Below, one piece after another: positions 21,923 through 64,000 of a DNA stretch of 64,000 nt. Position numbers and translations under genes: made by a program. The stretch lies in NCBI GenBank assembly GCA_030390025.1, contig CM059453.1, forward strand, positions 6,572,001 through 6,636,000. The letters are read 5' to 3'. The notes beneath the pieces were generated by a model. It saw only the letters and a program-made list of their open reading frames with translations, made no database searches and was not told the DNA's origin. Position 1 is the first letter of the stretch. Each line of letters opens with the position of its first letter. Source of the stretch: Squalus acanthias (taxonomy: Eukaryota).

Positions 21923-21974
21923 TTGGCAAAAATGTTATGAAGCATTTGACACTGGTTTTGAGGAGAGAACTGTA

Positions 21975-24548: not shown

Positions 24549-24563
24549 GAGACGGGGGGCGAA
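24549..24563 (+). promoter_or_regulatory. Polypurine tract
   Basis: gagacggggggcgaa immediately before the TGTA that starts the 3' LTR. Confidence 0.7.
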
Positions 24564-26469
24564 TGTACAGAGTTTTAATGTATTTTAGTGTTTTACTCTT
24601 TGGTAGTTTTAGGATTTTTAAGAATTAAGGATTTTAGTGAGTAAGTTTGAAAGTTTCTCGAGAATCGATCACCTACCCAGACAGAGAACCTTCTCGGGAC
24701 ATGGCTGTCTGTTTTTTGTGTCCCTGCAGAAAGGAAATCGGCAGGGAAAGGATAAAGTGCTCCGGTCCCGACATGAGAAAGCATGGGATCAGCATTGCAA
24801 TAACGCCTATGACCAAGTTTAGGGCGAGCCTTATTTGTTTTTATTAAAATGAATAAAATTTGTGATCGTGTATCATTTTACTATGTATATACTACAGTTT
24901 TCCAAGGAGTGTATGGGTGTTGGACGCCCTCCGTGCTTGGATGTGTATGAATTATTGATTCTTACCAGTATGTACCTGAAACACCACATTTAAAGTGGAA
25001 TGTATGTTTTGGTTTTCAGTTTAGGTAATACAGGTGAAGGTTGACTTTCAGGGATCAGGAATTTTGTCCAACCAGGACGATACTGTAGTGAAGGAAAAGT
25101 ATCCAAGGGGGCACTGTAAGTTTTCCAAAATTTGCAGATCCGCAAAACCCACGGAAAAAGAACTTTGGAACTACCCCACAGTGATAAAAATGCATTTGGG
25201 CCGAACATAAGGAATTTAAGACCAAAAACCAAGTTTTGGCACTTTAAAATCATGTCTGGGCCTGTAAAGGGAGAAAAGGCTTTGAAGGAATTTGAGGTCA
25301 AAACCTCAGTTTTGGACATTTCTAAGGATCAGGGAAGAAAAGCCCTGAGGAAAAATGACTTTGAATGAAACCCTGCAGTCACAGAAACAATACAGGCTGC
25401 GGGCAGGGGGTGGTGAGGCAGTGGATAGCTTTTGGGTATTGGGGCCCAGTCAAGCAGTCTGGAAGATGTTTGCACTGCAATCCAACCAAGGCGGATGAGC
25501 CTCATCCAAAACCTCAGAAACACATTCAAAAATGAATAATCCAAGACCCCTTTTGCATTCCCCAGGCCCAAACAGGATGCTAGAAGCCTGAAAACAATCG
25601 GAAGCCATCAGGACAAGTTAACACCAAGTTAAAATCATAAAACTTAACGAACACCGCCAAAACCTAAGACAATAGAATGAAAAGGCCTCAACTGAAACCT
25701 AAATCACATCAACACGCAACCGATTTAGTAAAGCGTTTTTTTGCGAAAAACACAATAAGGCCAATTCAATTTAGTATAATTGAAGGCCAATCAAACAGTT
25801 ACAGTTCAAGTTCAACAGAAGGCAGTTCTTCAGTTCAATTAAAAAGCCTGTTTTCAGCAAGAAGTCAAGGCTGGAGTTACAGAGTTAAGGACAAGCAGGC
25901 AGAAGGCAGTTTCCACAGTTCTGCAAGAAGGCAGTTCCACAGCTCGGAAGACGACAGTTTAAACAGAGGCAGAGTTACAGCAACAAGTTCAACAAAAGTG
26001 GCCAACAACTTCACAAGCAGACCGACACGCCAGAAGAAACCAGAGCGACTGCCTCAGCGACCATCGGACACCTCGCGGCAACAAGTGCCTTCCGAAACCT
26101 TTTACTCAAAAGACTCTAAACCCTAACTCTCAACTGTCAAGGATTCGTTTGGTAAGCATTATCCCTAATTCTCCAGAGTCCAACTTAACTAGTGAAGTGG
26201 GATTGGGAGGGGTGAAGTATTCTTCGAATGCTAATCCCCTCGCCTGTACCGCGTGTTCCCCAACCTGTGTTTAAGTGTTAAGTGTGTTTTAAGTTTGTTA
26301 CCTTTTTCTTTTAATAAAGCCAAAATTCTTTCATCAGAGCCTGTTGGCTGCTGCATCTTTGTTCACAAGCCCTAAATAAGTCCAAGGTGTAGAACCAGGG
26401 GCGACGGAGTGATTCGAACCGCTCACTGAGTCAGAGGTGAGGCTGATCCCTACCACAAAACCCCCTACT
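24564..26469 (+). repeat. 3' LTR (~1.9 kb)
   Basis: Starts TGTA after the PPT, ends ccccctac(t); its distal ~1.15 kb matches the 5' LTR. Confidence 0.82.
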
Positions 26470-27894
26470 GAGGTGATTAGGTGGAGAACAGGAGTGGATT
26501 TAATTACAGAATTGATAATAGCGTAAAATGAAAGTAGCAATAATGAGTCCAAAGGGAATCTTCCCTTTAAATGTTCCCTGGGTAAATTTACTTCCTAGAA
26601 AGTGTTTTGAAAGTGGAAGTCGCTGCCACATGGAGTAGTTTAGGTGCATTTCATAGATGAATTTAAGGGGGAGCTAGATAAGCTCAAGAGGGAAAAAAAG
26701 AATATAAGGTTATGCTAATATCGTGAAAAGAAGAGCGGTGGAAGGAGGCTTGTTTGAGCCATGGACCAGTTGGGCAGTGTAGCCTCTTTCGGTGCCGTGA
26801 ACGCAATGTAAATATACACTGTCACTAACACACATAGAGAATCTTCCCACTATAGTAGCACCATCAAGAACACAGAAATCGTGCGCTTAGTATGAAATGA
26901 AATGATATAAACTACACCCGTTGCCAATGACATTGTTGGGTAGGTCAACATGACAACACCCGGGTCCGGTATGACTCTGCCAGTATTGATCAGTGGGACT
27001 GAGTTCAGGTGGTGGAGCGCACTGCCCACAGAATTTCTTTCATTAGCCGGTGGATTTACCCTTTGAACCGAAATGAAAATGACAAACCAATGCACTGGGG
27101 TGTAATCTTCCAGTGCTGGAACTGAAACATTTAGAGCTGCGTCAAGGAACCAGATTGCAAAAATGTTTCATTCAGGCATTACATTTACAAAATGCGGAGA
27201 AAATACAACTTGCCCATTACGCCGATGGATTCCTATCCCTGTCCTCAGTACCTTTGAAACGAGAAAAATTTGCACACCCCCACACGTGCTTTCTGCAGGA
27301 TGCATTCCTAATTCTACCTCTTATCCCTTTCGAATCAATTGTGCACTTTACGAAAAATGCCTACATGTCGCAAAGTCACCTCAGGAAGTGATACCGTCAC
27401 ACAATTTATTAAGTAAATCATCCAAGTTCGCTGGGAAGAGAACTGCTGGGAGCTGGGATTAGACGAACACTTCTCCCAACAACCTCACAACAACAAAGCA
27501 AAAAAAAAAAAATCATGTATCGCCTTTTACGACCTCAAGACATCCCAAATCGCTTTACAGCCAATGAAATACGTTTGAAGTGTGATCACTTTTGTAGTGT
27601 AGAAGCATAGCAATTCATATTGCACGGAGCAAATCCCACATACCAACAGCGTGATAATGTCCAGATAGTCTGTTTAGTGATTTTTGGTTGTGGCAATTAG
27701 GGACGGGCAATATTAACAGGCTACGCCCACCTCCCAGAAACGAATAAACAATAAATTTAAAAAAATATTGACGGTGAGTATTTGTGAGTGGCTGAAAATA
27801 ATTTGGATACAGCGAACAGCTCACCAGAGATTTCTGTTGAATGTTAGTGCTGCATGTTTTTTTCCAATTAGATAGTTGCATTTATGTGTCCTCG

Positions 27895-31446: not shown

Positions 31447-31489
31447 ATGAGCACTTGCATGTTGTTTTCTCTCATGATATTGACCGAAG
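31447..31489 (+). CDS. Coding exon 1: signal peptide MSTCMLFSLMILTE
   Basis: gccATGA context, hydrophobic core, phase-1 donor G|gtacat; joins exon 2 as E-A-F-C-S. Confidence 0.75.
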
Positions 31490-34400
31490 GTACATTTCTT
31501 CCGTTTTTACTAATTTCTAAAACAGCTGATTTATATCTGGTGGGAAAAGAACAGGACAGTACCTAATATAATTGTTTTTAATTGATTCTAGCATTGATGA
31601 GTTGGTATTCCATAAGTGTTTTATTGCATGTGATTGCCTATTCAAACAATATTTAAATATAGGGTTTTTCAAGTTATATTTAAGAAGAATTGTAATGCAC
31701 ATTTAATAGCATGCTAATTCATATTGATTGCGTAATTCAAGGGAGAATCAATAGAAGTGTAAAGTTCATTCTAATTAATGTTAATTTTAATTTATATTTA
31801 ACGAAGATTTTATAGGGCATTCACTTGCTTTTTAGTGGATATGTGTTCGATTTTTAGATGAGTATTAAATATGCATATTATTTGTTCATAAAACTACTAT
31901 CAAATATATATTCCAATGGACATGTCAATAGTTTTTGCGATTGGTATTTAGTCAGTATTCTACTTGATTTTGAATAGTCTTTAACTGATATTTAAATTGC
32001 TAATGTGCTGGGTGGTTTTTAATCAATCAACAAGCAATTTTATGGATGCTTAAGCAATTGCAATGCTTTTTGAATGGATACTTAAAGGCCGTCTAATCTT
32101 TTACTTTCTCAGCCTTTTGTAGTGTTCAATGTTCTGTGGTGATGCCAAAAGTTGTGTCGGCGGTGTTGGGTTCTTGTGCAGAGATCCCGTGTAAATTTGA
32201 TAACATAGGCTACATCGCCAACCTGAACGGGCGGTGGATAAAGAGGGATCCTGGTCCTGGAACACCCAATGACTCCATTATCTATGATTCGAATGATCCA
32301 TTCAGGCAGCATTATAATTTTAGTGGCAGAGCTGAGTTCAAGGGCAACCTTGAAAAAAGACAATGCTCCCTCCTGATAAAGGATATCCGAAAGAGTGATG
32401 AGGGTGCATATCAGTTCATCACAGCCATCAGCTCGGGCAGAAATTCTATAACACATCGCATTGCCCGTTCTGAAGTCTTTCTGTCTGTTTTAGGTGAGTT
32501 TGCCATTTATTGTTCTTGTACATTTTTATTCCATTGTTTTAGTATGAATTAACATAGAGTCATAGAGTTATAACGGCACAGAGGGAGGTTATTCGGCACA
32601 TCGAGTGCGTGCCGGGTCTTTTTAGAGCAATCGAGTCAGTCCCATTTCCCCGTTCTATCCCCGTAGCACTGCAAGTTTATTTCACTCAAGTGCCTATCCA
32701 GTCTCCCCTTGAAAACATTGAGTGTCTCCGCTTCCACCACTTCCGTCGGCAGCAAGTTCCAGGACCTCACCACTCGCTGCGTTAAAACGTTTTTACTCAC
32801 ATTCCCCCTGTATCTCTTGGCCAAAACCTTAATCTCTGTTTCCTGGTCCTTGTACCATCAACTACTGGTAACAGCCTTTCCCCGTCTGGCCTATCTAAAC
32901 CCGTCATAATATTGTACAACTCTATCAAATCACCCCTCAACCTCCTTTGCTCGAATGAAAACTAATCCAGATTCTCTAACCTGTCCTATTAGTTAAGATC
33001 CCCCATCTGCCGGAACCATTCTGGTAAATCTCCTCTTCACGCTCTCCAGGGCCTTCACATCCTATTTGTAAAGTGGGCAATTTTTTTGATTTCTCTGGCC
33101 GAACATTAAGGTTAGTGGAAACATAGCGGGCAGGGGTACTGATAAGAGACGCAAGCATTCATATATTAAACACAGAGGTATATTGAAATTACAGCAGTAA
33201 ATCAAGCCGTTCGGCCCAGACAGCCCGTGTTGCTGTTTGTCCTTCACATGAGCAACACTCCGAATAGCATGTGACTGCTCAGTTCCCACATCCCTTTATT
33301 GCAATTCCCGTCCAACAACTGTCGAGCCTATTCTGAAATGTCCACATGAGGATAGATTTACTAAGTGTTGACTGTACCTAAAGCTGACATTGTTGATCGT
33401 ACTTATAATACATAAACCAGCAGCTCATTAGTTGCAATGAAATGAAAGGTAATGGAACTAGGTTGGTTGCTAGAATGGGTGACTTTTCTGGAATGACAGT
33501 TTTAACCAGGGCGGCCATTTCAAATTCTATCTCAGTCTGCTTCTTTCTCCTCTGTCCCGATGCTTAAAAAGTTTAAGCACTTCTGTCAAATCTTCCCAAA
33601 ATCTGTTTTAGCCTAATAAAATCTGCCTCAATTTTTAAATAATTTCTTGCTAATTGTACTTCATCATACCAGACGGAAACTACGCGAATCAACCCTGTAG
33701 CCTTCCTATAGACTGGCGCCCAATACCCGTATTCTTACTCCAACAGTGAACTAACTACTGTTCTCTTTTGAATCGCCACTAATCTCGAATTTATATTACA
33801 GATCTCCTGCCATTAAACTCAGAGCTCCAGAAACATTTTCATACACTTTTCCACTGGAGGTGCTGCTTTTACTGTCTTATGAACCTGACCCCAAATTCCT
33901 CTGCTCTTCCACATCTCCCAGCTTCCTACGGTCCAAATTAACATCTGACACCTCATATTTTCTGAACTTGAATTATATCTGCCTCTTATGTCCCCATTCT
34001 ACAATATCTCTAGTATCCGTTTGTAACTCCCTTTAGTTCTCTAGTTATTTCCTGGGAGTTGTACTTGCAACTTTGTCATGGTTGTCAAACTGGCGATATT
34101 GGATGCGCCTCTCATTGTACACACTGCCCAATTTTCATTTTGTTGGAATCTAATTAACTCGTAACGGGAAATTTGGATATCAGTCTCTTTAGCGCCTTCT
34201 CCAAATTATTTTCTCCAAAAAAATGTAAAATGTTTAAAGTTTATGGTTTTCCATACAAACTGCAGCATTTGACACATTAGACCCCCTCTAACCCCTCCTC
34301 ATTGTTTCAGTTGAATCTTGCTATGTCTTTGATGTGGTGCCTTCCTGGCTGACCTGATTGTTTCTCTGCCGAGGTGTTGCAAAAGGCAGTCAGGAGCATT

Positions 34401-37400
34401 AAATGTAATCTTCTGACATTGTACGCTACACAAGCATTGTTGTCTATCTATATATGCTTTGTCGATTCGTATTCCTTTACTTCACCTGACGAAGGTGCAG
34501 CAGCTCCGAAAGCTTGTGATTTCAAATAAAACTGCAATGGCTATAACCTGGTGTTGTGCGACTTCTCACCAATGCCCACCCCATTCCAACAACGGCATCT
34601 CCGCATCATGGCAAATTGTTGATGCACACAGTGAGTAAAAGCAATCCCACAGCACAGCTCTGTGGGACACCGTACTCAGATCCAACCATTCTGAGCAACT
34701 GCACTTAACGGCGACTGACTGCATCGTCCCTTCTAAACAGTTTATTTTGCAATTTCGACATTATCCTTAATTCCAAATATCTTAATATATTCTCCAATAA
34801 TCTCCCTGTGTTTACCGTCGACAATGGCTGGCTGATTACATTTCAAGTTACATTTTGCTGAAGCGTCTTTTGACGTCGCCAGGAGTCAAATGGCGCTGAA
34901 TTAATGCAGTCTTTGTTCGTGCCTTTCCCTATCCAGCGCTCATTTACCCCGCTTTTAATAAGATCTTAATTAAAAAGTAGATATTTCAGTAATGTGAAAA
35001 TCAGTTCAAGTTATAATTTATTTGTTCTTTCTAATCCATCGTCAACAAATGATAGTTCTGCTGAAGCCTTCATGAGATTCATACGCGAGGAAACTGCCCT
35101 TTGTCTGGTCTGTCCCTTTCTTGAGCATTGTCGTTCTCCATTGACGTTTATTGGCAACAGAATCGAGATCTCTCTGGGTCTGCATTAGTCACCATCATAT
35201 TGGCAGGTACTCGTGCAGAAGGAATCATAAGAGTGGATGAAATATTCGTGACATTTGAGGAGTTAACGTTGATTCTATGTCCAGCCTGCAAAATCTGTTC
35301 ATTGGAGAATATCCGTGATACATAAAATTTAGGAGACATAACGACTAATGTTTAATTAAGTGGGGCCACATGTTACCTGATGAGGCCTCATACTAAATTA
35401 CAACTGCGAGGAGTAATTCAGAATGGAGAACACACTTGCAACATGTAGCAGAGAAAAATAAAAAAAAAATGATTTTCTTGTTTCTTCTTTCTCAGATTTA
35501 GTTGTAAGCCATCAGTCGCCCGTTTTAACATTGAAATGTACCTAACAAGCTGGTTTTCTCCCATTTTTATAGAAAAGCCAGAGATTTTAGGTTATGGGGA
35601 ATTGACCGCTGGACAAACTGCACGAATGACCTGTTCTGTCACACACAACTGCCCGGATGGCAACCTGAAACTGAAGTGGATTAATTACAATGTGTCCCTT
35701 CCTCCCGCAATGGATACTCAAGATGGAGCAGAAATTAGCAATGAAAGTTCAGGTTCTCGGACAGTTTCATCCGTGATCATCTTCACACCATCATCTGCTA
35801 ATGACGGGAATATTCTGGGATGCACAATTCTAATTGATGGTATCACAACTCCATCAGCACAATATTTTACCTTGGAGATTAAATGTAAGTCATAGAGTCA
35901 TAGAGTTATACAGCACATAAACAGGCTCTCCGGCCTATCGTGTCCACGCCGGCCATCAAGCCTTGTCTATTGTAATCCCATTTTCCAGCACTCGGACCGT
36001 AGCCTTGTATGCTATGGCGTTTCAAGTGCACATCTAAATGCTTCTTGAATTTTGTGAGGGTTCCTGCTTCTACGATCCTTTCAGGCAGTGAGTTCCAGAT
36101 TCCAACCACACTTTGGGTGAAATTTTTTTTCCTCAAATCCGCTCTAAACCTACTGCCCCTTACCTTGAGACTATGCCCCCTGGTTATTGACCCCTCTACT
36201 AAGGGGAAAAGATCCTTTCTATCGACCCTATCTATGACAAACATAATTTTGTACACCTCAATCAGGTCACCACGCAGCCTTCTATTCTCTAGGGAAAACA
36301 ACCCCAGCCTGTCCAGTCTCTCATCATAGCTGAAGCGCTCCAGCCCAGGTAACATCCTGGTGAATCTCCTCTGCACTCTCTCCAATGCAATCACATCCTT
36401 CGTCTAGTGTGGCGACAAGAACTGCTCACAGTATTTCAGCTGTGGCCTAACTAACGTTTTGTTTAGCTCCATCATATCCTCCCTGCTGTTATATTCTATG
36501 CCTCGGCTAATGAAGTCAACATTTCCATATGTCTTTTTAACGACCTTATCTACCTGTCCTGTTGCCATCAGGGATATATATACATGCACACCAAGGTCCC
36601 TCTGATCCTCTGTCCTTCCGAGGGTCTTACCACTCATTGTGTATTCCCTTGCCTTAATAGTCCTCTAAAAATGGATGTCTTGCTGCAGCTGTACAGGGCC
36701 TTGGTGAGGCCACATCTTAAGTACTGTGTGCAGTTTTGGTCGCCTTATCTGAGGAAGGATGTTCTTGCCATGGAGGGAGTGCACCGAAGATTCACCAGGC
36801 TGATACCTGGGATGGCAGGAATCTCGTATGAGGAGAGATTGGGTCGATTGGGCTGAAACTCGCTGGAGTTTAGATGAATGAGAGGGGAACTTATATAAAC
36901 TTCTAAAATTCTAACAGGACTAGACAGACTAGATGCAGGAAGGATGTTCCCGATGGCCGGGGAGTCCAGAACCACGGGTCAGAGTCTAAGGATATGGGGT
37001 GAGCCATTTAGGACTGAGATGAGGAGGAATTTCTTCACCCAGAGAGTGGTGAACCTGTGGAATTCTCTACCACAGAAGGCAGTAGAGGCCAATTCATTAA
37101 ATATATTCAAGAAGGAGTTAGATATATTTCTTCAAGCTAAAGGGATCGAGGTATATGGAGAGAAGGCAGGGACAGGATACTGAATTTGGACGATCAGCCA
37201 TAATCTCATTGAATGGCGAAGCAGGCTCGAGGGGCTGAATGTCCTCCTCCTGCTCCTATCTTCTATGTTTCTATGTTTCTAAATGCATCACCCCACACTT
37301 TTCAGGGTTACATTCCTTTTGCCACTGTTGTGCTCATCTAACCATCCCTTCTATACCGTCCTGTCGCCTGAGGCTTCCCTCCCCGCTCCACCAATTTTCG

Positions 37401-40400
37401 TGTCATCTGCGAACTTTCTGATCATACCTCCTACATTCATATGTAAATCATGAATGTAGACTACAAACAGCAAAGGACCCAGCACCGATCCCTGCGGTAC
37501 ACCAATGGACACAGGCGTCCAGTCACAAAAACAACCTTCGACCATCACCATCTGCCTCCTGCCACTAAGCCAATTTTGAATCTAATGTGCCAAATTTCCC
37601 TGGATCCCATGGGCTCTTATCTTCTTGACCAGTCTCCCATGAGGGACTTTGTCAAAATCCTTACTGAAGTCCATGTAGACTACAGCAACTGCACTACCCT
37701 CATCCGCACACCTAATCACCCCCTCGAAAAATTCAATCAAATTGGTCAGACATGATCTCCCCCTGATACAGCCATGCAGATTATCCTTGATTAATCCTTG
37801 CCTCTTCAAGTGGAGACTAATTCTGTCCCTCAGAATTTTTCCAATAACTTCCCTACCACCGATGTTAGGCTCAATAGCCTATATTTCCCTGGTTCATCCC
37901 TACTAGCCTTCTTGAATAATGGTACTACGTTAGCTTTTCTCCAGTCCTCTGGCACCTCCCCTGTGGCCAGAGAGGTTCTGAAAATTTGTGTCAGTGCCCC
38001 TGCAATCTCTTCCCTTGCCTCACACAGCAGCCTGGGATACATCCCGTCAGGGCCTGGGGAGTTATCCACATGTAAGCCCGCTAAAAACGTTAGTACCTCC
38101 TCCATCTCAATACTAATTTGTTCAAGTATATCCCCCTGCCTGATTGCTATATCTACATCACCCTTCTCCATCGTAAACACTTCTGCAAAATATTCATTTA
38201 AAACCTCACCTACATCTTCCGGCTCTACATTCAGATTGCCACGTTGGTCCCTAATGGGCCCTACTCTTTGCCGCGTTATCCTCCTGCCCTTAATATACTT
38301 AGAAAACATCTTGGGATTTTCCATTATTTTGCCCGCCAGTGTTTTTTCATGCCCCAGCTTCGCTCTCCAAATTTATATTTTTAAGTACCCCCTGCGCATT
38401 ATATACTCCTTTAGGGCTTCCACTGTTTTTAGCCCTTTGTGTCTGCCAAAAGCCTCCCTTTGGACCTAATCCATTCTTGTATGTCCCTTGTCATCCAGGG
38501 TTCCCTCGGCTTTTTGGTCCCACCCTTGACCTTGACGGGAACATGTTGGTGTTGTACTCTCTCTATTTCGTTTCTGAAAGACTCCCACTGCTCTGATGTG
38601 GATGTTCCTGCAAGTAGCTGATCCCAGTCCACTTTGGCCAGATCCTGCCTTAACATATTAAAATCGGCCTTCCCCCAATTTAGAACCTTTATTTCCGGTC
38701 CATCTTTATTCTTTTCCATGACTACCTTAAATCTCACCGAATTATGTTCACTGTCACCAAAATGAACTCCTACTGATATTTCTACCACTTGCCCAGCTGC
38801 ATTCCCCAGAATTAGGTCCAGTACCGCCCCCTCTCTTGTAGGACTTTCTACATGCTGGCTCAAAAAGCTCTCCTGGATGCTCTTTAAGAATTCTGAATCC
38901 CTCTAAGCCTTTCACACTGTGACTATTCCAGTTAATACTCGGGTAGTTGAAATCCCCTACTATTATTACCCTATTATTTCTACACTTCTCTGAGATTTGC
39001 CTACATATCTGTTCCACTTCTCCCCCTGAATGTATGGGGTCCTATAGTACACTCCCAGCAAAGTGCTTGCACCCTTTTTTGTTTTTAAGTTCTACCCATA
39101 TGGCCTCATTAGAGGAACCTGCTCAGATATCATCCAAGTTTACAGCATTAATTGTCTCCTTGAATAATATTGCGGCACCCCCTCCACTTTTACAGCCCCC
39201 TCTCTCTCGCCTGAAGATTATACACCTCGGAATATTGAGCTGCTAGTCCTGCCCCTCCCTCAACCATGTCTCTGTGATAATAACAATATCATACTCCCAT
39301 GCGTTCATCAACACCTTCAATTCATCTGCCTTACTCGCAAGACTCCTTGCATTAAAATAAATGACATCCAGCCTTGCCATACTACCTTGTGCCGTTATAT
39401 ATTTGCTCTGCCTTCCAGGCTGACTTGTTTTTTCCTGTATATTTGGCTGTGCATCACCCCCTACTATAGCTCCACTCCTTATCCCATCCCCCTGCCAAGT
39501 CAGTTTAACGCCCCCCCCCACCACCACCCCAAAAGTACTAGCAAACCTCCCCGCAAGTATGTTGGACCCGTCCTGGTTCAGGTGCAACCCGTCCGAGTTG
39601 TACAGGTCCCACCTTCCCCAGAAGCAGACCCAGTGATCCAGGAAAATATAGCCCTCCCTCCTGCACAAACTCTTTTGCAACGTATTCATCTGCTCCACCC
39701 TCCTATTCCTATACTCACTAGCACGTGGCACCGGGAGTAATCCAGAGATGACAACTTTTGAGGTCCTGCTTTTTAATCTTCTACCGAGCTCCCTAAATTT
39801 TGGTTGCAGGCCCTCATCCCTCTTTCTACCCATGTCGTTGGTACCAATGTGAACCACGACCTCTGACCTTCAGAAGGCCTTCAGTCGTTCAGTGACATCC
39901 TTGACCCTGGCACCAGAGAGGCAACATACGACCCTGGAGTCACGTCTGCGGCCACAGAAACGTCTATCTGTTCCACGTACGTTAGAATCCTCTATCACTA
40001 TTGCTCTCCCACTCTTTTTCCTCCCCTCCTGTGCAGCTGAGCCACGACCAGTGCCACGGACTTGGCTCTTGTTGCATTCCCCTGAGCAACCTTCTCCCCC
40101 ATCAGTATCCAAAATGGAAAATCTGTTGGAGAGGGAGATGTTCCCAGGGGACTCCTGCACTATGTTCCTCGTTCTTTTACTCTGTCTGGTGGTCACCCAT
40201 TTCCTGTCTGCCTGCGCACTCTTTACCTGCGGTGTGACTACCTCGTTAAACGTGCTATCCACGAAGATCTCTGCTTCGCAGATGCTCCACAGCGACTCCA
40301 GCCACAGCTCCAGCTCCGAAACGCAGATTTCGAGTAGCTGCAGCTGGAGACACTTCCTGCACACCTGTTCGCCCTGGACACAGAAAGTGTCCCTGACTCC

Positions 40401-43400
40401 CACAAAACACAGGAGGACCACTCCACGCTGCCGACCTGCCCTGCCATGTCCTACCCGTAATTTACTACATTTACTTCCTTTAATTTAACGAATATTAATT
40501 ACACTAGGGACCTTACTTCCCTTTAAGCACTACTTAATCTAAACTAGAGACCTTACTTTTTCTTTAACAAATGGACTGTAGAAATACTCACCAGCTCCTA
40601 CTTACCAATCAGCTCCTTCCCAGGTTATGACGTCACTTTAGCGGTTTCGCAGTTGTTGTTGTTTGACTGCACCCGCTCTCGGACTCTTTCCTTGGTGTAA
40701 AGTAAGAACCAATTCCCAACTCACAGCACTCTGCTTAAACCGCACTTTTATTTTTCTCCAGATGCGGTTGCGGGATGTCACAGAGCCGAACTCCCGCTGG
40801 TTCTCTGTCCGCTCTTGTGCAGCTTTTTAGCTCCTGCTATCATGGAAGCTGAGAAAGACAGAAAAAGAAAGGAACACCTCCCTCCCCGAACTCCCTCACT
40901 AACCAAACTCGCAGCTTAACACTCTGTTCCGAGCTGCACTACGTGACAAACTGCACTAAGTGTCCGGTCTAAAGTAAACAGGCTTATCCTGTCGGCCAAC
41001 GGGCACAACATTTGCACTTTTGCCACAAGTAATTTATCAGGAATTAGAACTTCATCAAAGAATGCATCATGAAAAGCTCAGCATCTGTAGCAGGGGAGCT
41101 CACTTCGATAATAAATGGTTCGGAATGGCTCTCATCTAATTCGCATCAGTCATATTACATTAGAAACATTCATAACCATGAATCAATGATGGTGCCTCCA
41201 ACAGATTTTTTAAAGTGATTGTTAATCTTTATTCTAAGAACTTCCAGTCAGGTTCTGAGTTTAGTCAGTTATAAATGGAAGCAACAAAGGCCATGCCGAG
41301 TTAGGATCTGAATCTATGGCACCAGGTCTCACCTTTGGTTGGGCTTAATAAGAACTTAAGGATTAGGAAAAGGAGTAGGCAATACGGCCCTTCGAGCCTG
41401 CTCCGCCACTCCGGCAATCATGGCTGATCATGGAACTCAACTCCAATTTCCCGACCGATCCCCATACCCAATATAATGAATTAATTATGAGCTTAATTAT
41501 GCTTATTCGGCAATCACGTTTCTCGTTAACGCCTGTTTTAGATGGACTGGAAATCACAACCGTCAACTCCTCTTTTGCAGCTGTGGAAGGAAGTTCATTG
41601 TTATTATACTGCAGGGCCTGGGGGAAACCCCTGGTCAGTTTAAGGTGGGTGAAAAATGGTGAAGAGACCAGCAGGTCTTCCACTGGTGAACTAAAGCAGA
41701 TATTCCACAACATTCGTTCTGAGGACGACGGTGAATATTGGTGCATAGCTGAAAATGCCCTGGGCACCGCCAACCGCTCCACACAGATTTCAGTACAATG
41801 TAAGTATGTATGAATTTATCAATTAGAGAGTAGCCTTTCATTTCACGAACTCTGGATTAAATTCCAATTTTCTCTTGCCTGCTTGCTGGAGGGCGACCAT
41901 GTGCATGAGTTTGGGATGGTTTCACCTCTTTGCGCGGAAATAGCGGCAAACTACCTCGATGGCTCCAATAATGGAAACTAACCTGCATCTCGCTCAGTAT
42001 GACAGGAGTGGAATATTGCTCAATTTCTCATAAATGCAGCGGGTCTTACATTTATGAGGTTGCGACACAAGCTCATTTCCTGGGACCATTAATCTACAAC
42101 TAATTGTTCATAAATTATACTCGTCGTCTGAAATAATCAATTTTCCAATCTATAGAACTGACATGTAGCAATTTGAGGAGCACAAATTCGCTCAAAAAAA
42201 GTGAGATAAAATGGTGTTATCAAACTACTTTTACTTGTATTAACATTGAGTTAATAGTGCAATGTTCTCGAGACTTGATTCTTTGAATTGTCGCTTGTTA
42301 TCCGGAGGTTTATTGAAGAATCACGTCAGTCCACCACAAACGAAATGTTTAATCCAGTACACAAAGTGAAGAAATTGAAATGAATTGAACTTTTAAAACA
42401 TTGACGGGTGTGACACGTTTGTGTGTATATTATACATAATTAAAACTCTGAGCTAGCTCCGTCTGAGGGTCCCTCACAACATCTGTCAGGAGATGTACTG
42501 AAAGACTGAACACTCGTTGTATTTAATATGGAATTGTTCATAACGAGCTCACCTGTTATAAGTGAAAATATAATAAGCCATGAACTGTTGCAACATTGGC
42601 TGCTTCATCTTAAAATATAACAACCAGAACCATTATGGTTAGTTCAAGTCATTACGTAATTGTAGTTCGACACTGCAACTGTTTACATGATCATTCCCGA
42701 TTGAAGTTTCCATTATTTTTAGATAAACCCACAATTGCAGCAGGCCCGACATGCACCAACTCTGAGAATTGGACGGATTGTAGCTGCCGGATCAGAGCCA
42801 ATCCCCCGGGAAACATCACGTGGTGCCTCAATGGGAGAATTCTCACTGGGGACAGGTCAGATGTGGAAATCATCTCCTGGGCAGTGAATAGTCACCTCAT
42901 GGAGAGCTCCCTGAGACTGACTCACCCAACCGGAACCGGAAACCTGATCTCATGTGTTGCAGCAAACGAGCACGGTGATTCTGTCAGTAAATACCAGCTC
43001 CACTCTAAGGGTACGTGTTGAATCTGCCTGTAATTTAATACTATAAGGGAGTTGGTCCATCATGGTCAGTCACTACCTGAACGGTGTTAGTGTCAGCAAA
43101 TACCAGCTCCATTAATCAGCTCCATACTGAATCTATATCTAATTAGTGTAAGGACCTCTTTCCATCAGTGGTCAATCAGCAACTGAAAGGTGGCGTCGGC
43201 ATCATCCATTTGAACTTTCAGTCTTCTGAAACTTGTTCGGTTCATATTTTCAAGATAAGATGGAATTATCTGAGCACCAGAAGTAGCCAGTGATCTTGGA
43301 AAACAAATTCTTGTGAAATAAGCTATTTTTTTTCGAAAATCCAATTTGCTCTCAATACATGATAGCAAACTGCAATCGACCAGTTTGTAGATACATGCTC

Positions 43401-46400
43401 ATCTCTATCTTCTCCAAACTCATTTGAGTATGTAACGCGGATATATAATAAACTAAGCGAAATTGAATTATCTCCATAGATTATAAATCTTACCGCTGTA
43501 ATTGGTGACCTTGGCGGGCCTGTATTCAGCTTAGATTATGTCCACTGATTTTCCGAGGGTGGGTTGTCGCGTGAAGTTAATTTGTCAATTGAGATTTTGA
43601 CATCAGCGAATTTTCAATTATTAATTCCAATTTACACCAGGATGCAACACAGGAATAAAAGGCTTTTACGCAAGGATCATGAGGTTGAGACATGTGGAGT
43701 ATCTAATTTACCACTAGCTTTGAATCCGAACATAAAGGAAACGTGCTTCTTTACACTCATAAAAGTGCTTCTAAGATTGTTGTTTAAACCCAACTTCGTA
43801 ATGTTCATCAATGTTTTTTCCCCAACATTTTAGGAATATTCTCCACGACAACCGTCCTCATAATAGGAGGAGGAGCCACAGGGTTTGTTATTCTAATTGC
43901 AGTCGTGCTCACGCTGAAGATACAAAGGTATGTGTTATTATAAATTTGATAGAATTGTGTTTTAAAGATGACCCTTTCGGCCAGTGATTGTTTTCACCTC
44001 CGGTGTATTCTGTATAAAGTTTGCAGCATGCTCAAAAATAGGCGGAGAATCCCTGTCAGTTTGTTTCTGCTGCTACTTTTAAGGGGCCCCCTCACACGAG
44101 TCCCCTTGCCATGTCACGCTCTAAGGACAGTACTACACAAGAATGATACTTAAATTCTAACAATCAAGCTAGTCCAGCAAACAGCTAAACAAGAAGCAAA
44201 AAAGTCACGTGAAATATACTTTTACAGTCGTTGTTAAGTTTGTTTGACTCCAGGAGTAGAACATTATATTTCAAAATTGGGTGTGAATGATGTACTAAAG
44301 CATGAAACATGCAATTATTTATGTTGCCCTTGTTATCTTATTCTTTCCGGTCACTTAAGCTACTTGATCTGACTAGCTCTCACTGAAAGCCGTAGACAGA
44401 CTCCCTTCTTTTAAAATGCAGGCTGATAATTATCTTCAGAATTGTGACCGGCTCCCAGTGAATTAAAATAACAACCAGATCGGTTTACAATCTGCTGCCT
44501 ATCAAATTTATCCTTCAACCAATCGGACAGGATGTTTATATTTGACATCTATGACGTTGCTCGTCGGATAGGTGCCGCCCCTCAACAGCTAATGATTCGA
44601 CAAAAAACGAAACAAAATGAACCACAACACTCTTGTGAGTGGTGCTAGCTTTTACAGCTTCATGTACCATGATATATTTAAAGAAGGAAATTCCATGTTT
44701 AATAATATGAACTAATCAATGATCGCAAAATGATTGATGAGGAGTATTGATTTATTCCTGATTTCTAACTCCAATGTGTTGAAGTGTTCTACCTAATAAT
44801 AGAAAGGACTGTGTTGACACATTGAAACACTTGCATCTGCTATTTACCCATTTTGAAATCATTAATAAACCTCCCACAGACCGTTATTTATCACACCCAA
44901 CTTTCACCGAGAGCAATCAGCACCGTGCCGTTAACGTATATTATCGATAAAGTAAAATGTTCCCTTTTGAAATGTTGGTTGGTGGAAATTGAAAAGAATT
45001 GGTTTTCGGATCTGGTCTGCGCTAATCAGGAGAAGTAAAAGCCACAAGGTGCCAAATAAAAGGTTAGAACACAAGATTAGGACTCATGGGGTTGAGGCTA
45101 ATATAGTAGCATAGGTAGGGGGTTCGTTAACCGACAGAAAACAGACAGTAGGTATAAACGGATCTTTTTCAGGTTGGCAGGTTGCAACTAGTGGGGTGTC
45201 GCAAGGATCACTGTTGTAGCCTCAGCAATTTACAATCTGTATTAATGACCTAGATGAAGGGACCGAGTGTAATGTATTCAAGTTTGTTGATACAAAGCTA
45301 GGTGGGACAGTAAGCTGTGAGGACAACACAAAGAGTCTGCAAAGGGATATAGATAGATTAAGTGAGTGGGCAGTAAGATGGCAGATGGAGTATAATGTAG
45401 GGAAACGTGAGGTTATTCTCTTTGGTAGGAAGAATAGAAAAACAGAATATTTTTTAAATGGTAAGAAACTTTTAAATGTTGGTTGTTCAGAGAGATTTGG
45501 CTGTCCTCGTGCAAGAAAGACAGAAAGCTGGCATGCAGTTACAAAAAGCATTAAGGAAGGCAAACGGCATTGTGTCCTTTATTGCAAGTGGTTTGGAGTA
45601 TAAGAGTAAGGAAGTTTTGCTACAATTGTACAGGTAAGAACACACCTGGAGTACTGTGCACAATTTTGGTCTCCTCTAAGGAAAGATATACTTGCCTTCG
45701 TGACAGTGCAACGAAGTTTCATTAGATTGATTCCTGGGATGAAAGGGCTGTCCGATGGTGAGAGTTTGTGTAGAATGGGCCTATACTATCTGGAGTATAG
45801 AAAGATGAGATGATCGAATTGCAACATACAAGATTCTGAAGGGGATTGACAGGTTAGATGCTGAGAGATTGTTTCCCCTGGCTGGAGTGTCTAGAACTCT
45901 GGGGGATAGTCCCAGGATATGGGGTCGTCGATTTAAGACCGAGTTGAGGAGGAATTTCTTCACGCAGTGGGTTGTGAATCTTTGGAATTCCCTGCCCCAG
46001 AGGGCTGTGAATTTAGAGTCTTTGATTATTTTCAAGGCTGAGATAAATACATTTTTGGACTCTACGAGAGTCAAGGTCTACGGACATGGTTTGGGAAAGT
46101 GAAGTTGAGGTCGATGATCAGCCATTATCTTATTGAATGGAGGAGCAGGCTTGCGGGGCTCGAATGGCCTACTCCTGCCTCTATTTCTTATGTTCTTATG
46201 TTCTTAAGTCTTTCGTGACCTACTGACGTCCTTCATCGCGCAAGCGCCGTGTATTTTCACTAAACATTCCAGTTAATTATCAGAAGTGCCTAATTTGCAT
46301 GTTTTATTGTTCAGAAAGAAACACGGAGAAGCTGCACGTGTCTCCGAAACACACGATGATTTGGTGATTTACAGTACGGTGCAGAAGGTACTAAACACTG

Positions 46401-49380
46401 AAGTAAGTGAAGCCAAGCTGGGCTGCAAATTGTAGTATGGTTTTAGTGCTTTCAACCAGCAAGTAACTCATAACTGGCATTACCCAACAGATAAACTGGA
46501 GTGTCAGAAACGTGTTGCCCATTAAGGGAGGATTAACCGCCTCAGGTCGCTAAGAGTGCAACATAGCTACAGACTCTAAGTCTAGTGACCGACTAAATCC
46601 AATTAGGGAGTATTTCTCACCTTGGCGTTCCTTCAAAAACCAAATTCTTAATATAGGAATGCGTTTCCAATGTCATCTTACCCCCTACGAATTAGGTGTC
46701 ATCTGTTAAATGCCCAACAAGCTCACGAAGTGTCAGCGACCCCAGAGGGGATAATCGTTGCCCTTCCTCAGGTTATGTGTAACTCCAATTTGCATCTTGC
46801 TGCCGATGTGGGCCCCATGTTCTCCACCTTTCCGCAAGAAGGCTGTGGCTTCAAGCTTCGCTTCAGCATCTGAACCGATAATCTGGACTGAAACTTCATT
46901 TCAACACTGAAAGGTGTGCAGCATTGCCAGAAGACCCGTCCTTTTGTATTAGATGATAAACGAGGCCCCGGTTGTTTCTTGCTATGGAGGGAATCGATCA
47001 CTTGGTCCTATTGTGGGGACGAATGAGAGTTTTCCCAGGGCCCTTACTAACATTTCTCCTTCAATGAACACCAGCTAACACAGATTAAGTCGCCATTCAT
47101 CCATTTAACTGGTTGCTGCATATTTTCTACAACAGCGGCTGGAATTCAAAATATATTAATTGCATAGCAGTGCTTCGGTCTTAATAATCACAGAATCATA
47201 CAGCCCAGAAGTAGCCATTCAGCCCGCGGTGCCAATGCTGGCTCTTTTAAAGAGCTATCCAATTGGTTACACTATTCTGCTCTTTGACCTTAGCCTTGAT
47301 TTGATTTTTTTTCCATGTTCACGCGTATATCAAATTCCCTTTTGAAAGTCACTGTTGAATATGCTGCCACCGACCTACATGCAGCTCATTCCAGATCACA
47401 AATCGCCTTGCTAAAAAAAAACCTTCTCACCTCCTATTTGGATCTTGTCCCAAATATCTTCAATCTGTGTCCTCTGGTTAGCGATGCTCCTGCCAGTGGA
47501 ATCAGTTTCTCTTTTATTGTGTATTAAAATTCAGCAGTATTTTTATCACCAATATCTAATCTCCCTTTAACATTCTCTACCCTAAGGAGAACAACCCCAG
47601 TTTCCCTGGACTCTTTCTTTAAGTGCAGTCCCTCATTCCTCCTACAATTCTAACAAATTTGTTCTGTACCTTCACTAATGCATTGACGTCCTTTCGACGG
47701 TGTTATGCACAGAACTGAACACAATTCGCCAGCCGAGGCATAACCACTGATGTACAAATGTTCAGCGTATTTTTCTTGTCTTCATAATCTGTAACTCAAT
47801 TTATAAAAACCCGGATCAAGTATGCTATTTCGAAGCATTAGAATCATTTTACAGTACAGGAGGCGAATATTCGGTCCGTTGTACCTGTGCTGGCTCTTTG
47901 AAAGAGGTTTCCAAATTAGTCCCACATCCCAGCCTTATCGATTCGTCCGGATATACAATTGCACGTTCTTTATTTCTTGCATCAAAACTTAACAACGCTC
48001 ATCTCATGAATCAGCACCATTAGAAATCTTAACAGGTGCAGACAGCGCACTGCCATTGCATTCAGGTCCATATTTTTTTTAATTCGTTTATGGGATGTGG
48101 GCCACGCTGGCAAGGCCAGCATTTATTGACCATCCCTAAATGATCTTGAGAATGTGGTGGTGAGCCCCCTTCTTGAAACGCTGCACACCGTGTGGTGAAG
48201 TTAGTCCCACAGTGCTGTTAGGGAGGGAGTTCCAGGATTTTGACCCATCGACGATGAAGGATCAGCGATATACTTCTAAGTGAAATGGGGAACTTGGAGT
48301 TGGTGGTGTTCCCATGCGCCTGCCGCCCTTGTCCTTCTAGGTGGAAGAATTCGCGTGTTTGGGAGGTGCAGCTGAAGAAGCCTTTGTGAATTTCTGCAGT
48401 GCATCTTGTAGATGGTACACACTGCAGCCACGGTGCGCCGCTGGTGGAGGGAGTGAATGTTTAAGGTGGTGCATGTGGTGATGATCAAGCGGGCTGCTTT
48501 GTCCTGGATGGTGTCGAGCTTCTTGAGTATTGTTGGAGCTGCACTCATCCAGGCAAGTGGAGAATATTCCATCACACTCCTTACTTGTACCTTATAGATG
48601 GCGCAAAGGCTTTGGGGAGTCGGGAGGTGAGACAATCGTCGCAAAATACCTAGCCTCTGACCTGCACTTCTTACCACATATTTGCAATAGCTCTGTTGTG
48701 GAGTATTGTAAAACAACACTCGGCACAAGGGTTTAGATCGACAGACAAGTTGTCTTTATTACACCGGTGGAGAGACAGTCTGCTCTGTCCTAGCCAGACG
48801 TTTCCAAATTGTTACAGCAAACACTACATTTTTATACATTACAATACACATGACCATCTCATGCAAAATATATTCCAGCCACCTGATTGGATCTTGGCCC
48901 GCATGCACCTTCACGGATTGGTTACGAATCTTAATATAAGCATGTATAAGCTACCTCTTCGAACAATCACTCAAATTGCTGAATGCTAATTAAAAGATAC
49001 CTTGGAATGCGACCTAGGTAATAAAGTTCTTACGGGTAGTTGAAATGCTGGACATCCTGTCTCCATTTAATTGTTTTATCTCTCTCCAAATGTCAGCTGT
49101 CGTTGACCACATCGTTATAGATGTGGCACTTCATGTTAGCCCTTACCTTTTTACAGTATTCAGGAAAACTGCCAGCAATGTAATTTTAACTCTTTCCCCA
49201 CAGCAGCTCCACATCTAACACAAATGACTTCCGTTACAGAGGGGCCATCAGTGTACAGAGGCTGGTCGTGGCGCCGCTCAATCGACTAAACCAGATCAGC
49301 GTGACGAGATTGTGTACGCGACCGTCAATTTCTCAAACTTCCGCAAACATGATCAATATATTGAAAATGAGGAGAGCTGA
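31447..49380 (+). CDS. Siglec/MAG/CD22-like inhibitory Ig-superfamily receptor; spliced CDS join(31447..31489,32113..32493,35573..35884,41542..41799,42723..43010,43834..43927,46315..46402,49240..49380), 534 aa
   Basis: All introns are GT-AG with compatible phases (1,1,1,1,1,2,0); 1605 nt open from ATG to TGA. Order: signal peptide, Siglec-type V-set, C2 with HxCP, I/C2, MAG-D5-like Cys-rich Ig, TM, tail with VIYSTV and IVYATV ITIMs. Orthology to a named Siglec cannot be assigned by eye. Confidence 0.88.
32113..32493 (+). CDS. Coding exon 2: Siglec-type V-set Ig domain
   Basis: Acceptor tttctcag|, donor G|gtgagt. VVMPKVVSAVLGSCAEIPCKF...FSGRAEFKGNLEKRQCSLLIKDIRKSDEGAYQF shows the Siglec B-E intrasheet Cys pattern, an interdomain Cys and no F-strand Cys. 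Confidence 0.93.
32553..33075 (-). mobile_element. CR1 3' fragment in intron 2
   Basis: (catagagt)n reverse tail; TQRVVRSWNLLP. Confidence 0.85.
35573..35884 (+). CDS. Coding exon 3: C2-set Ig domain (Siglec domain-2 type)
   Basis: tttttatag| acceptor, T|gtaagt donor; KPEI...MTCSVTHNCP...LKW...VSSVIIFTPSSANDGNILGC. Confidence 0.92.
35891..40956 (-). mobile_element. Full-length, inactivated CR1 LINE (5'UTR, ORF1 with Zn finger and SGNH esterase, ORF2 EN-RT, tail)
   Basis: ORF1 fragments (CRKCLQLQ; VHIGTND; DGLHLN), EN (IYFNARSL, ITETWL, VGDFN), RT (YMDFSKDFDKVPH, GVPQGSVLGP, KFADDTK), C-terminus at 35906; TSD taagt at 35886-90 and 40957-61. Confidence 0.93.
36674..37280 (+). mobile_element. 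CR1 3' fragment nested in the full-length CR1
   Basis: Opposite orientation, (tttctatg)n tail, TSD aaatg at 36669-73 and 37281-85. Confidence 0.9.
41348..41470 (-). mobile_element. Short CR1 3'-terminal fragment
   Basis: aggagtaggcaatacggcccttcgagcctgctccgcca motif. Confidence 0.75.
41542..41799 (+). CDS. Coding exon 4: I/C2-set Ig domain
   Basis: ttttag| acceptor, T|gtaagt donor; EGSSLLLYCRAWGKP...LRW...EDDGEYWCIAENALG. Confidence 0.92.
42723..43010 (+). CDS. Coding exon 5: membrane-proximal Cys-rich Ig domain (MAG domain-5-like)
   Basis: tttttag| acceptor, G|gtacgt donor; PTCT...DCSCRIRANPPGNITW...SSLRL...ISCVAANEHG. Confidence 0.9.
43834..43927 (+). CDS. Coding exon 6: transmembrane segment
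   Basis: ttttag| acceptor, AG|gtatgt donor (phase 2); GIFSTTTVLIIGGGATGFVILIAVVLTLKIQR. Not in the ORF track. Confidence 0.88.
45040..46205 (+). mobile_element. CR1 RT-to-3' fragment in intron 6
   Basis: Degenerate GVPQGS-like and WQMEYN motifs; (ttcttatg)n tail. Confidence 0.88.
46315..46402 (+). CDS. Coding exon 7: cytoplasmic exon with ITIM VIYSTV
   Basis: ttgttcag| acceptor in phase 2; (R)KKHGEAARVSETHDDLVIYSTVQKVLNTE|gtaagt. Confidence 0.82.
47189..47940 (-). mobile_element. Old CR1 3' fragments
   Basis: Reverse tails (acagaatcatacag; agaatcattttacag) and ctaaggagaacaaccccag. Confidence 0.7.
48073..48685 (-). mobile_element. HER1-type LINE 3' portion
   Basis: ORF IYKVQVRSVMEYSPLAWMSAAPT..LDTIQDKAARLI plus the HE1/HER1 shared tail. 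Confidence 0.8.
48694..49205 (-). mobile_element. Solo LTR (512 bp)
   Basis: Termini TGTTGTGG...CCACAGCA (7/8 inverted match), 4-bp TSD gctc on both sides, minus-strand AATAAA at ~48755. Confidence 0.75.
49240..49380 (+). CDS. Coding exon 8: terminal cytoplasmic exon with ITIM IVYATV
   Basis: Branch-point-like ctaac at ~49215, then ttccgttacag|; RGHQCTEAG...DEIVYATVNFS...ENEES*. The same acceptor context is conserved in the paralog at ~62461. AATAAA at 49482. Confidence 0.82.
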   Translation, partial: RGHQCTEAGRGAAQSTKPDQRDEIVYATVNFSNFRKHDQYIENEES

Positions 49381-49784
49381 GAATATGCAGCAATGAAACA
49401 TAAGTGAAAGTAAACAGTTGTTAAACTGTTAGCGCGGATGGTCTTGAAACTGACAATAGTTTAAAACACCTGATGACATAAAATAAATCAAACATTGTAT
49501 TGAAATAAGCATTATCAGAATGGCGATCGTTGAGACAATCGGTTGCATGTTTTGATTTAAGTTCTCAAAGTGAAGTTCATTGGAATACAGTTGAGAGTGT
49601 GATTTTTTCATCAATGTAACTTTTCAATTTTTTTAATCTATTCTTTGAAAATAACAATTTTACAAACCATAGCTAGCATCGTCTCTCTCTGTTAATCTAC
49701 TGTAATCGATTGGCCCGCAGTATGAACCCTCACTAACGGGGATAAGGTTGCCAAAAAAGCTTGCAATGAAACACCAGAGACAAT

Positions 49785-62356: not shown

Positions 62357-62377
62357 GGGATCAGATGATTTGTTTTA

Positions 62378-62460
62378 GCTGCATACAGGTCCTCTTCACT
62401 TTGAGCTGACTGGTTTGATGGAGCCCCTCTCACACCAGTGTTTCTATATTTGTCTTGGCT
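62378..62460 (-). pseudogene. Remnant of terminal cytoplasmic exon, paralog of exon 8
   Basis: Upstream ctccacatctaacgcaataccttctgttacag matches ctccacatctaacacaaatgacttccgttacag at ~49208-49239. The translation aligns without gaps, with Tyr at codon 26 in both (EEDLYAA vs DEIVYAT). Confidence 0.75.
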
Positions 62461-62777
62461 CTGTAACAGAAGGTATTGCGTTAGATGTGGAGGTACTGAA
62501 CCGTGTGAGAGTGCGCTTACTGTACCAGAATAACTCGTTTTATTCCATCACTGCCGCCATTCTAATTATCCTGTTACGCTACTTCTGCCTCCAAAAGGAA
62601 ACCTTGGGCTTCTGCTAGCCCCGAGGACCGGCACGCAAAGAGTTATTGCCCCCTCCTTAACACTTAGCCGACTGATTTAGATAGCGTCGCGAACGTTCTG
62701 AGGAGCGGTACCAAACAACATTTGAGACCGACCAATAATGTCCCTTTATAAATGTATTAGGTTCATTTCCCACTTAC

Positions 62778-63035
62778 ATTGTACAGAAATTTGTGTGGAG
62801 CTGTTTGCGGTACCCAGGTTATTTTCAGCCACGCATCAATACTCCCCCTCATCTTCAGAACTAATGCTGTGAAATATCGGCTTTCGTTCACCGGTGGAAG
62901 ACCTGCTGATCTCTTTATCATCTCGGAGCAATGTTAAACTGACAGGCGGGATCCCCAGGGCCGTTCAGTATAATAATAACGATCTTCCTTCCACTGTTAC
63001 AACAGAGCAATTATCGCTTGGTTTCCACAGTGCAT
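62778..63035 (-). pseudogene. Ig exon paralogous to exon 4, with nonsense mutations
   Basis: Same length as exon 4 (258 nt); ttcag| and |gtaagt intact; VEGRSLLLY*TALG...SEDEGEY*CVAENNLGTANSSTQISVQ. TGA at 62965-67 replaces the B-strand Cys and TGA at 62836-38 replaces Trp. Confidence 0.9.
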
Positions 63036-63844
63036 CTGAAACACGCAAGAACATTGGTGTTACAGGAAAATGTCGGAGCAGAAGTTTAGAAACCAATCCG
63101 GTTGAAAACCAACGAAGAATATTAAAGCAGATCTGGTGTTTATATTGTCAACTGTAAATTGAAAAGCCAGCTTGAGATTGTTGTTGTTCCATCGACAAGC
63201 TTATTTAGATCTGAAGCATGCTTTAACTCAACCTTTCCTCCTCTTCTCTTCAAGGAGTTGTAGTGACTTCCTGGATGTGGTTCTGCTCCACCGATACGTC
63301 AATCAAGCGGCCATTCCTCCCAGAGCAAGAACAGTGGGCTCTCACATCCCTTAAGCAGAGCTGTTGAGGCCAATTGTAGTAACCCGACCATCGCCCCAGC
63401 CAACTCGACACAGACCATCTGTGTCAGGTACTCTCTGGCTGCAACTATATCAGGAATTAGGAGCCTTTGGAATAACATTTGACGTAAAAGACAACGATGG
63501 AGCGACCAATATTACTCTATGGGTCTGTGTCAATGTTAAACAATAGAACTTACAATAAATCTCGGACAGTCAATTTGATTAATTGATTATAGAAACATAC
63601 GCCATTCTGCACTTCGAGTCTGTTCCACGAATCAATTAGATCATGGTTAATCCATATCGTAACTCCTTCTACCCGCCTTTGCTTTATTGTAACCCTTAAT
63701 AGCCTTAACAAATAAAAAATCTATCCATCACAGTTTTGACATTTTCAATTTTCCAGGCCAGCTATCACTCCCCTGAGAATAAGGACAAGTTTGGATCCAA
63801 TCTACCAACAGGATAGCAGAATGAAGGTTACAGCAGTTACTTAC

Positions 63845-64000
63845 AGTCCAGATGTAAGTGTTTCTTGAACGGTAACCACGACACCATCAACAACAAGCTT
63901 ACATCCCATCCTTTTCCCTTTACGGTCCAGTGATGGAGTGAACGTGAATGTTGATGAAACCGTCCAGGAACCATTGACATTTTTCCACTGTGTCTTGAAG
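63845..64000 (-). pseudogene. 3' part of C2-set exon, paralog of exon 3
   Basis: NVNGSWTVSSTFTFTPSLDRKGKRMGCKLVVDG aligns with SSGSRTVSSVIIFTPSSANDGNILGCTILIDG. The gtaagt donor at 63844 is reached in phase 2 rather than 1, implying a frameshift. Confidence 0.8.

Follow-up and report, generated by a model that had tools for sequence, protein, structure and literature searches.

Virtually all Siglecs are described as having the essential arginine of the sialic-acid site (PMC13358205), the mutation of which abolishes sialic-acid binding in most of them (PMC10122656, PMC5150538). Natural losses are described for human Siglec-XII (R122C), which keeps its ITIMs (PMC11343606, PMC6288428), for human Siglec-17 together with great-ape Siglec-5/14 (Arg to His/Tyr; PMC6288428, PMC7379906), and for rat Siglec-H, which has Ser at this position (PMC4986536). 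The loss in SIGLEC12 is presented as recent and the gene as being eliminated (PMC6288428). Among fishes, teleost genomes are described as devoid of CD33-type inhibitory Siglecs and fish MAG as bearing ITIMs (PMC7226832). A WxxW motif marks MAG orthologues, and MAG C421 and C430 are cysteines of its Ig5 (PMC5150538). In the open literature searched we found no account of the elasmobranch cluster described here, nor of any Arg-less Siglec subfamily that is both old and expanded. The accessible portions of the teleost survey (PMC7226832), of the whale shark genome paper (PMC8455134) and of a ligand review (PMC8161119) do not cover either of these; Supplementary file 9 of the whale shark paper lists Siglec families (PMC8455134).

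The window, i.e. the whole stretch of 64,000 nucleotides of Squalus acanthias DNA analysed here, carries a gene for an ITIM-bearing receptor whose V-set domain is of the Siglec type and has Ile at the position of the essential arginine.

Gene organization and the V-set domain

The receptor gene extends from position 31447 to 49380 and its 8 exons, joined at GT-AG sites in phase, encode 534 residues (Table 1). The eight-exon model was built on homology and splice signals. For exon 7 a donor at 46387 was rejected in favour of 46402 after comparison with relatives, and tblastn with 32 relatives detected no further exon inside the gene; the Ig domains are four. The product has C2-type domains, a single transmembrane helix and tyrosine motifs, as expected of a Siglec. 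Its tail carries two motifs of the ITIM form [ILVS]xYxx[ILV] typical of inhibitory receptors, in agreement with the earlier note, which had read the gene as coding for an ITIM receptor. K456, the only basic residue, lies at the cytoplasmic edge of the helix, and a basic residue within the helix, the feature of DAP12-coupled activating Siglecs, is not found. The membrane-proximal domain encoded by exon 5 has an extra Cys366 (42824-42826, + strand), absent from 30 other aligned rows.

Table 1. Features of the receptor gene and of related sequences in the window
Feature	Position	Strand	Description
exon 1	31447..31489	+	ATG, signal peptide; aligns with relatives' N-termini; GT donor, phase 1
exon 2	32113..32493	+	Siglec-type V-set domain without canonical Arg
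Cys21	32130..32132	+	TGT; Trp2 column; without evident partner Cys; Cys in 8/16 Arg-less rows
Arg55	32232..32234	+	C strand; putative cross-strand neighbour of Ile117; R/K in 8/16 Arg-less rows
Ile117 (precursor numbering)	32418..32420	+	ATC; F-strand essential-Arg position
exon 3	35573..35884	+	Siglec domain-2-type C2; interdomain Cys168 (35650-52); best PDB matches Siglec-8, MAG, CD33
exon 4	41542..41799	+	I/C2-type Ig domain, resembles MAG Ig3/Ig4
exon 5	42723..43010	+	MAG Ig5-type membrane-proximal domain (C-x8-C-x-C); C342, C351, C353
exon 6	43834..43927	+	transmembrane helix, no intramembrane basic residue
exon 7	46315..46402	+	tail; ITIM VIYSTV (46364-46381, residue 476)
exon 8	49240..49380	+	tail; ITIM IVYATV (49309-49326, residue 512); ends at TGA 49378-80
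terminal tyrosine motif relic and ancestral stop	49381..49407	+	untranslated; EYAAMKHK-stop, in frame
broken paralogue	62377..63996	-	tail-to-tail with the gene; domain-2 part, domain-3 exon with two stops, tail exon
family Ig exon relic	27770..27841	+	24 codons with stop, E 3e-4; upstream of the gene

Exon 2, flanked by AG and GT in phase 1, matches the Pfam models V-set (2.9e-10) and Ig_CD22 (9.6e-9), both above cut-off, which excludes a chance match. In phmmer its best PDB sequence match is sialoadhesin (1e-11), besides MAG and Siglec-8. The Ile of the DEGAYQFI segment to which the earlier note had drawn attention is indeed Ile117, encoded by ATC, and aligns with the Arg of mouse sialoadhesin, MAG and Siglec-8 in 5/5 of the alignments shown; the column of sialoadhesin Arg97 is thus Ile in the receptor and the essential F-strand Arg is absent. 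This column evolves only moderately slowly, ranking 45 out of 126 by rate. The aromatic residues that flank the site on strands A and G are absent as well, their columns being occupied by Cys21 and Arg130; sialoadhesin W2 and W106 are the residues that we take to be the site aromatics. Across the 55-row V alignment the column of Cys21, whose TGT codon the same note had placed at a Trp position, is Trp in 9/12 other family rows, and that of Arg130 is W/Y/F in 21/27 outgroup rows. The further claim of a G strand devoid of aromatics stands insofar as no W/Y/F is found here; however, His129 is present as the sole ring residue at the start of the strand, accompanied by two further Arg, and the loss need not be group-wide, since a Tyr lies one column upstream of the aromatic site in 6/16 Arg-less rows. 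By strand register R55, R130 and R133 probably lie near the site, and they keep the GFCC' face cationic. Judged from these alignments, the canonical sialic-acid pocket is gone at three positions (Ile, Cys and Arg in the Arg, Trp2 and G-strand aromatic columns), as had been proposed.

The Siglec cysteines, said earlier to be retained, are found: C36, C41 and C99 in the V domain and C168 in domain 2. C41 and C99 are the B-E intrasheet pair (predicted disulfide), Phe116 replacing the usual F-strand Cys, and the interdomain cysteines C36 and C168 align with the pair of MAG. An AlphaFold model of the V domain obtained from a 39-row alignment has a mean pLDDT of 86.4, the single-sequence version reaching only 33.7 and being unusable. 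Its top structural matches are sialoadhesin and MAG (Foldseek, VIA-align; Z 17.4, rmsd 1.8-1.9, 111-114 residues aligned), with V domains outside Siglecs scoring just 1.3-2 Z below them. Prediction of a V-domain homodimer gave a score of 0.02, which was used neither for nor against a dimer.

The TGA at 49378-80 directly precedes a nine-codon remnant of a terminal tyrosine motif, which ends 13/29 family proteins, 6 of these 13 having Cys where the TGA stands. Among the 15 Arg-less relatives, 5 stop behind the second ITIM, 6 keep the terminal motif and 4 have incomplete tails. Read as such a relic, the remnant indicates that a third tyrosine motif has been lost from this copy as well. The earlier statement that the whole frame is intact applies to the 534 open codons, but not to the third, terminal tyrosine motif, which the TGA cuts off. 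Selenocysteine insertion at the TGA was considered and rejected: nothing in the window matches Rfam at the gathering score, and 7/13 relatives have Ser or Asn there. The remnant is well preserved; the TGA may be a recent change, a polymorphism or a sequence error.

Conservation of the receptor gene was evaluated against its family. Of the columns with >=90% conservation across 25 family rows it keeps 52/52 (for 18% neutral change, binomial 3e-5). When neutral substitution was simulated to 18% amino-acid change, the frame stayed free of stops in 1% of 2000 runs, the no-stop probability being 7% at 10% simulated divergence, and the terminal branch of the gene is ordinary (0.19-0.22 vs a median of 0.26). 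The framework of the receptor shows, by these measures, purifying selection, which argues against long neutral decay; a very recent death of the gene would be compatible with the same data.

Over 234 nt, the broken paralogue found tail-to-tail with the gene is 79% identical in nucleotides to exon 4. The broken family relics listed in Table 1 indicate a birth-and-death cluster. The domain-2 piece of the paralogue best matches P0170 and sequences from the branch in which most members bear Arg (P0013, P0104), and its V exon lies beyond the window. Between it and the gene is an assembly gap of 199 N (52862-53060). Elsewhere in the window, two similar stretches of ~600 bases with near-identical ORF translations (21161-21705 and 25668-26274) flank broken coiled-coil ORFs at 22100-24450; from its sequence this region (about 21160-26280) looks like an LTR-type element. 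Introns and flanks presumably carry many LINE reverse-transcriptase fragments. No flanking marker gene was identified in the window for synteny with the SIGLEC cluster.

The elasmobranch family and the arginine column

The relatives returned come from the sharks Heterodontus, Heptranchias, Scyliorhinus, Pristiophorus, Stegostoma, Chiloscyllium, Carcharodon, Cetorhinus and Mustelus and from the rays Narcine, Hypanus and Mobula. The top matches looked up are elasmobranch, with V identities of 43-63% among the relatives and 63% for the best; XP_067874525.1, XP_067883557.1, XP_067831324.1, XP_038668977.1 and XP_069758101.1 are examples of direct RefSeq relatives. They are named automatically 'sialic acid-binding Ig-like lectin 8/12/13/14', 'MAG-like', 'Schwann cell myelin protein-like' or 'nectin-4-like'; the RefSeq names imply sialic-acid binding, whereas the missing Arg and the subfamily are not noted there. 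Neither a holocephalan member nor shark MAG, CD22, Siglec-1 or Siglec-15 was among the matches looked up (word-based searches with 63, 8000 and 8000 candidates scored), which does not imply their absence.

With the Arg column omitted, the tree computed from 55 V-domain rows assembles 28 of them in an elasmobranch family (support 95/90). Within it a 16-row group including the receptor gene (99/94), spanning nine shark genera and two rays, has Arg in 0/16 rows, the column being Ile in 11, Ser in 2 and Phe, Leu or Thr in one each. The sister row of this group has Arg, and the other 12 family rows comprise 7 with Arg, 1 with Lys and 4 with neither, against 22/27 with Arg and 5/27 without it among outgroup V domains. 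XP_067831554.1 and XP_078093182.1 are examples of Arg-bearing sisters. The same 16 rows group in a tree of the non-V domains (30 rows; 92/92), 15 of them including both rays with support of 100/99. The concatenated tree, from which Amia was excluded as a long branch, joins to the 16 rows the Arg-bearing, V-only P0009 in a 17-row group (96/98), P0009 being placed in an unresolved fork. Positions of the rays outside the Arg-less sharks plus P0009 and P0173 (both Arg-bearing Heptranchias genes) are rejected by the AU test (p 7.6e-5); with the V domain alone, the test did not reject rays outside the Arg-less sharks plus P0009 (p 0.336). P0182 of a third ray, the manta Mobula birostris, has Thr and no Arg. 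Excluded from the trees were P0030 (a chimeric model, with Ile), isoform duplicates, P0037, P0045 and P0081.

Since the Arg-less group of the V, non-V and concatenated trees spans galeomorph and squalomorph sharks together with rays, the loss of Arg is, on these phylogenies, certainly older than the split between the two shark lineages. It probably also predates the separation of sharks from rays some 250-300 million years ago. A single event is likely, though less firmly so in view of the placement of P0009 and of the AU test on V alone. Arg was lost separately in other family branches, with 4 changes on the tree, and the site is therefore labile in the family. A species-specific loss like that of SIGLEC12 is ruled out by the V and non-V trees, and the analogy with this gene drawn in the earlier note fits poorly: the shark loss is old and the group expanded afterwards, while SIGLEC12 lost its Arg recently and is being eliminated. 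Its idea of a cartilaginous-fish lineage is borne out, the Arg-less state marking a group across galeomorph and squalomorph sharks and rays, and the framework of the receptor gene showing purifying selection. The phylogeny that it had suggested nests the receptor among mostly Arg-bearing Siglec-type genes, in trees composed without shark MAG, CD22, Siglec-1 and Siglec-15 orthologues and without holocephalans; by descent the gene thus belongs with the Siglecs.

At least four Arg-less copies are present in Heptranchias and three in Heterodontus, and their C, C' and FG segments differ strongly. P0002 and P0003 have no domain 2, Asp at the interdomain Cys site and a new Cys on the G strand; the joint loss of domain 2 and of the interdomain Cys supports that the V/C2 disulfide is real in other members. 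P0001 (XP_067831292.1) is a RefSeq model that seems to fuse two Siglec-like genes and a 7TM fragment (PF00001), which suggests that the cluster of Heptranchias contains a GPCR gene that might serve for synteny. A second Siglec-like family has tandem V domains (P0029, P0126, P0022, P0011 and P0005, with Mustelus and Hemitrygon among the named sources); it is mostly Arg-bearing, has tails with tyrosine motifs and is well separated from the family of the receptor in the V tree.

Putative function and ligand

We favour, giving it an even chance, the hypothesis that the gene codes for an inhibitory receptor which recruits SHP and whose GFCC' face binds a non-sialic ligand, probably a protein. It would be a type I receptor encoded in a tandem cluster of elasmobranch genes that are MAG-like and derived from Siglecs, the ancestor of its subfamily having presumably lost the Arg-carboxylate salt bridge. 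The GFCC' face, with its hydrophobic centre and its variation among paralogues, could have been re-used for a ligand outside the canonical sialic-acid pocket, most likely a host or pathogen protein. By analogy to known Siglecs, ligand-driven clustering would lead to phosphorylation of the ITIM tyrosines, and the phosphorylated ITIMs would recruit SHP-1/SHP-2 to damp leukocyte activation. The Arg-less Siglec-XII is reported to still recruit SHP1/2 (PMC11343606), and Siglec-5 to bind streptococcal beta protein, a sialic-acid-independent protein ligand (PMC2722167). A broader proposal, to which we give somewhat less than an even chance, is that before the shark-ray split a MAG-like Siglec branch dropped its sialic-acid pocket and became a lasting, expanding inhibitory family for other ligands, beside Arg-bearing sisters in the same clusters; this would be the oldest and only family-scale re-purposed Siglec scaffold. 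In half of the members a basic residue may have shifted to the adjacent strand, which, if true, would be a new pocket geometry.

It is rather unlikely, by our estimate, that anionic glycans (sialosides or sulfated ones) are still bound through a rearranged or second site, made up of Arg55 with Arg130/133 or resembling the V/C2 interface of Siglec-6. The C/F strand register follows the usual V-set topology, and the strand limits of the V model (36-43 and 97-106, exon numbering) agree with a 41-101 register, in which R55 would be next to I117. C-strand R/K occurs in 8/16 Arg-less rows vs 2/32 rows with R/K on F; but the other 8/16 have no basic residue at the C-strand site, and the pairing of C-strand R/K with loss of the F-strand Arg amounts to 5 independent pairs on supported branches, for which a sign test is not significant. 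Siglec-6 binds sialylated glycolipids without Arg122, through the V/C2 interface, and needs Arg92 and the interdomain cysteines (PMC10122656). Elements of this type are kept here, namely a D-strand Arg87, matched by motif, and C36/C168. However, a D-strand Arg is found in 55/55 V rows as a general structural residue of V-set domains, the Arg-less P0002 and P0003 are without domain 2 and its interdomain Cys, and Trp2 and the G-strand aromatic are missing too in this receptor. Given Arg55, Arg130/133 and the Siglec-6-type Arg87, anionic glycans might be bound in a non-canonical way.

Improbable to us is a receptor with no specific extracellular ligand, its site lost to escape sialylated pathogens and its inhibition tonic or cis-associated, possibly in a Cys21 disulfide dimer. 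Loss of Arg as pathogen escape is an accepted, published model (PMC13358205), ligand-free signalling is proposed for Siglec-XII (PMC11343606), and the apparently unpaired Cys in the Trp2 column recurs in 8/16 rows, from six named shark genera plus the receptor gene; the Arg-less expansion in Heptranchias and Heterodontus, with diverse C, C' and FG segments, nevertheless fits diversified recognition better. We give quite a small chance to the receptor copy being recently dead or dying within its birth-and-death cluster, regardless of its relatives. In its favour are a nonsense codon near the 3' end, the additional Cys366 and the presence of two broken relics of the family at a distance of less than 20 kb. 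Against it are the 534 open codons, the eight in-phase GT-AG exons, the 52/52 columns kept, a terminal branch that is not long, and the 5/15 Arg-less relatives whose tails likewise stop behind the second ITIM.

Loss of the Arg in itself is already known from other Siglecs; the open literature searched gave no Arg-less subfamily that is ancient, expanded and conserved. The ITIM-bearing shark-ray cluster, with Arg-plus beside Arg-minus branches, offers a natural pair for Siglec function without Arg, a question also pending for Siglec-XII and Siglec-H. The cluster also bears on a possible immune-receptor role of the MAG-like ancestor, and the shark genes that were automatically named 'sialic acid-binding' may be misnamed.

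Comparison with known Siglecs

Among PDB entries, MAG matches the family profile best (1e-65), from V to Ig5. The likeness covers the V domain, a domain 2 with the interdomain Cys, an I-type domain and an Ig5-type domain with the extra disulfide spacing. In contrast to MAG, the receptor has four Ig domains instead of five and no equivalent of R118, and its genes are multi-copy and fast-changing. The WxxW motif is absent from the N-terminus of the receptor, which is not a MAG orthologue because of this absence and of its four Ig domains. The V domain of sialoadhesin (Siglec-1) is the closest by sequence (1e-11) and structure (Z 17.4), but its Trp2, Arg97 and Trp106 columns are Cys, Ile and Arg in the receptor, which has a short ectodomain and an ITIM tail. 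Because the Arg and the aromatics are not found, the receptor is filed, on its residues, as Siglec-derived rather than as a Siglec.

CD33-related Siglecs (e.g. Siglec-5, -8 and -10) are alike in being clustered, fast-changing paralogues with pseudogenes and with an ITIM plus further tyrosine motifs, and domain 2 of the receptor best matches one of them, Siglec-8. The family is not grouped with the four CD33-like rows of the V tree, in which deep branches are open, sampling is small and rows are labelled by motif only. The Arg-mutant Siglecs (Siglec-XII, Siglec-5/14 and Siglec-H) likewise have a Siglec scaffold without the essential Arg, and Siglec-XII and Siglec-5 keep ITIMs. Each of these, however, is a single gene whose change is recent, at the level of the species or polymorphic, whereas the Arg-less state of sharks and rays is common to a multi-gene group.
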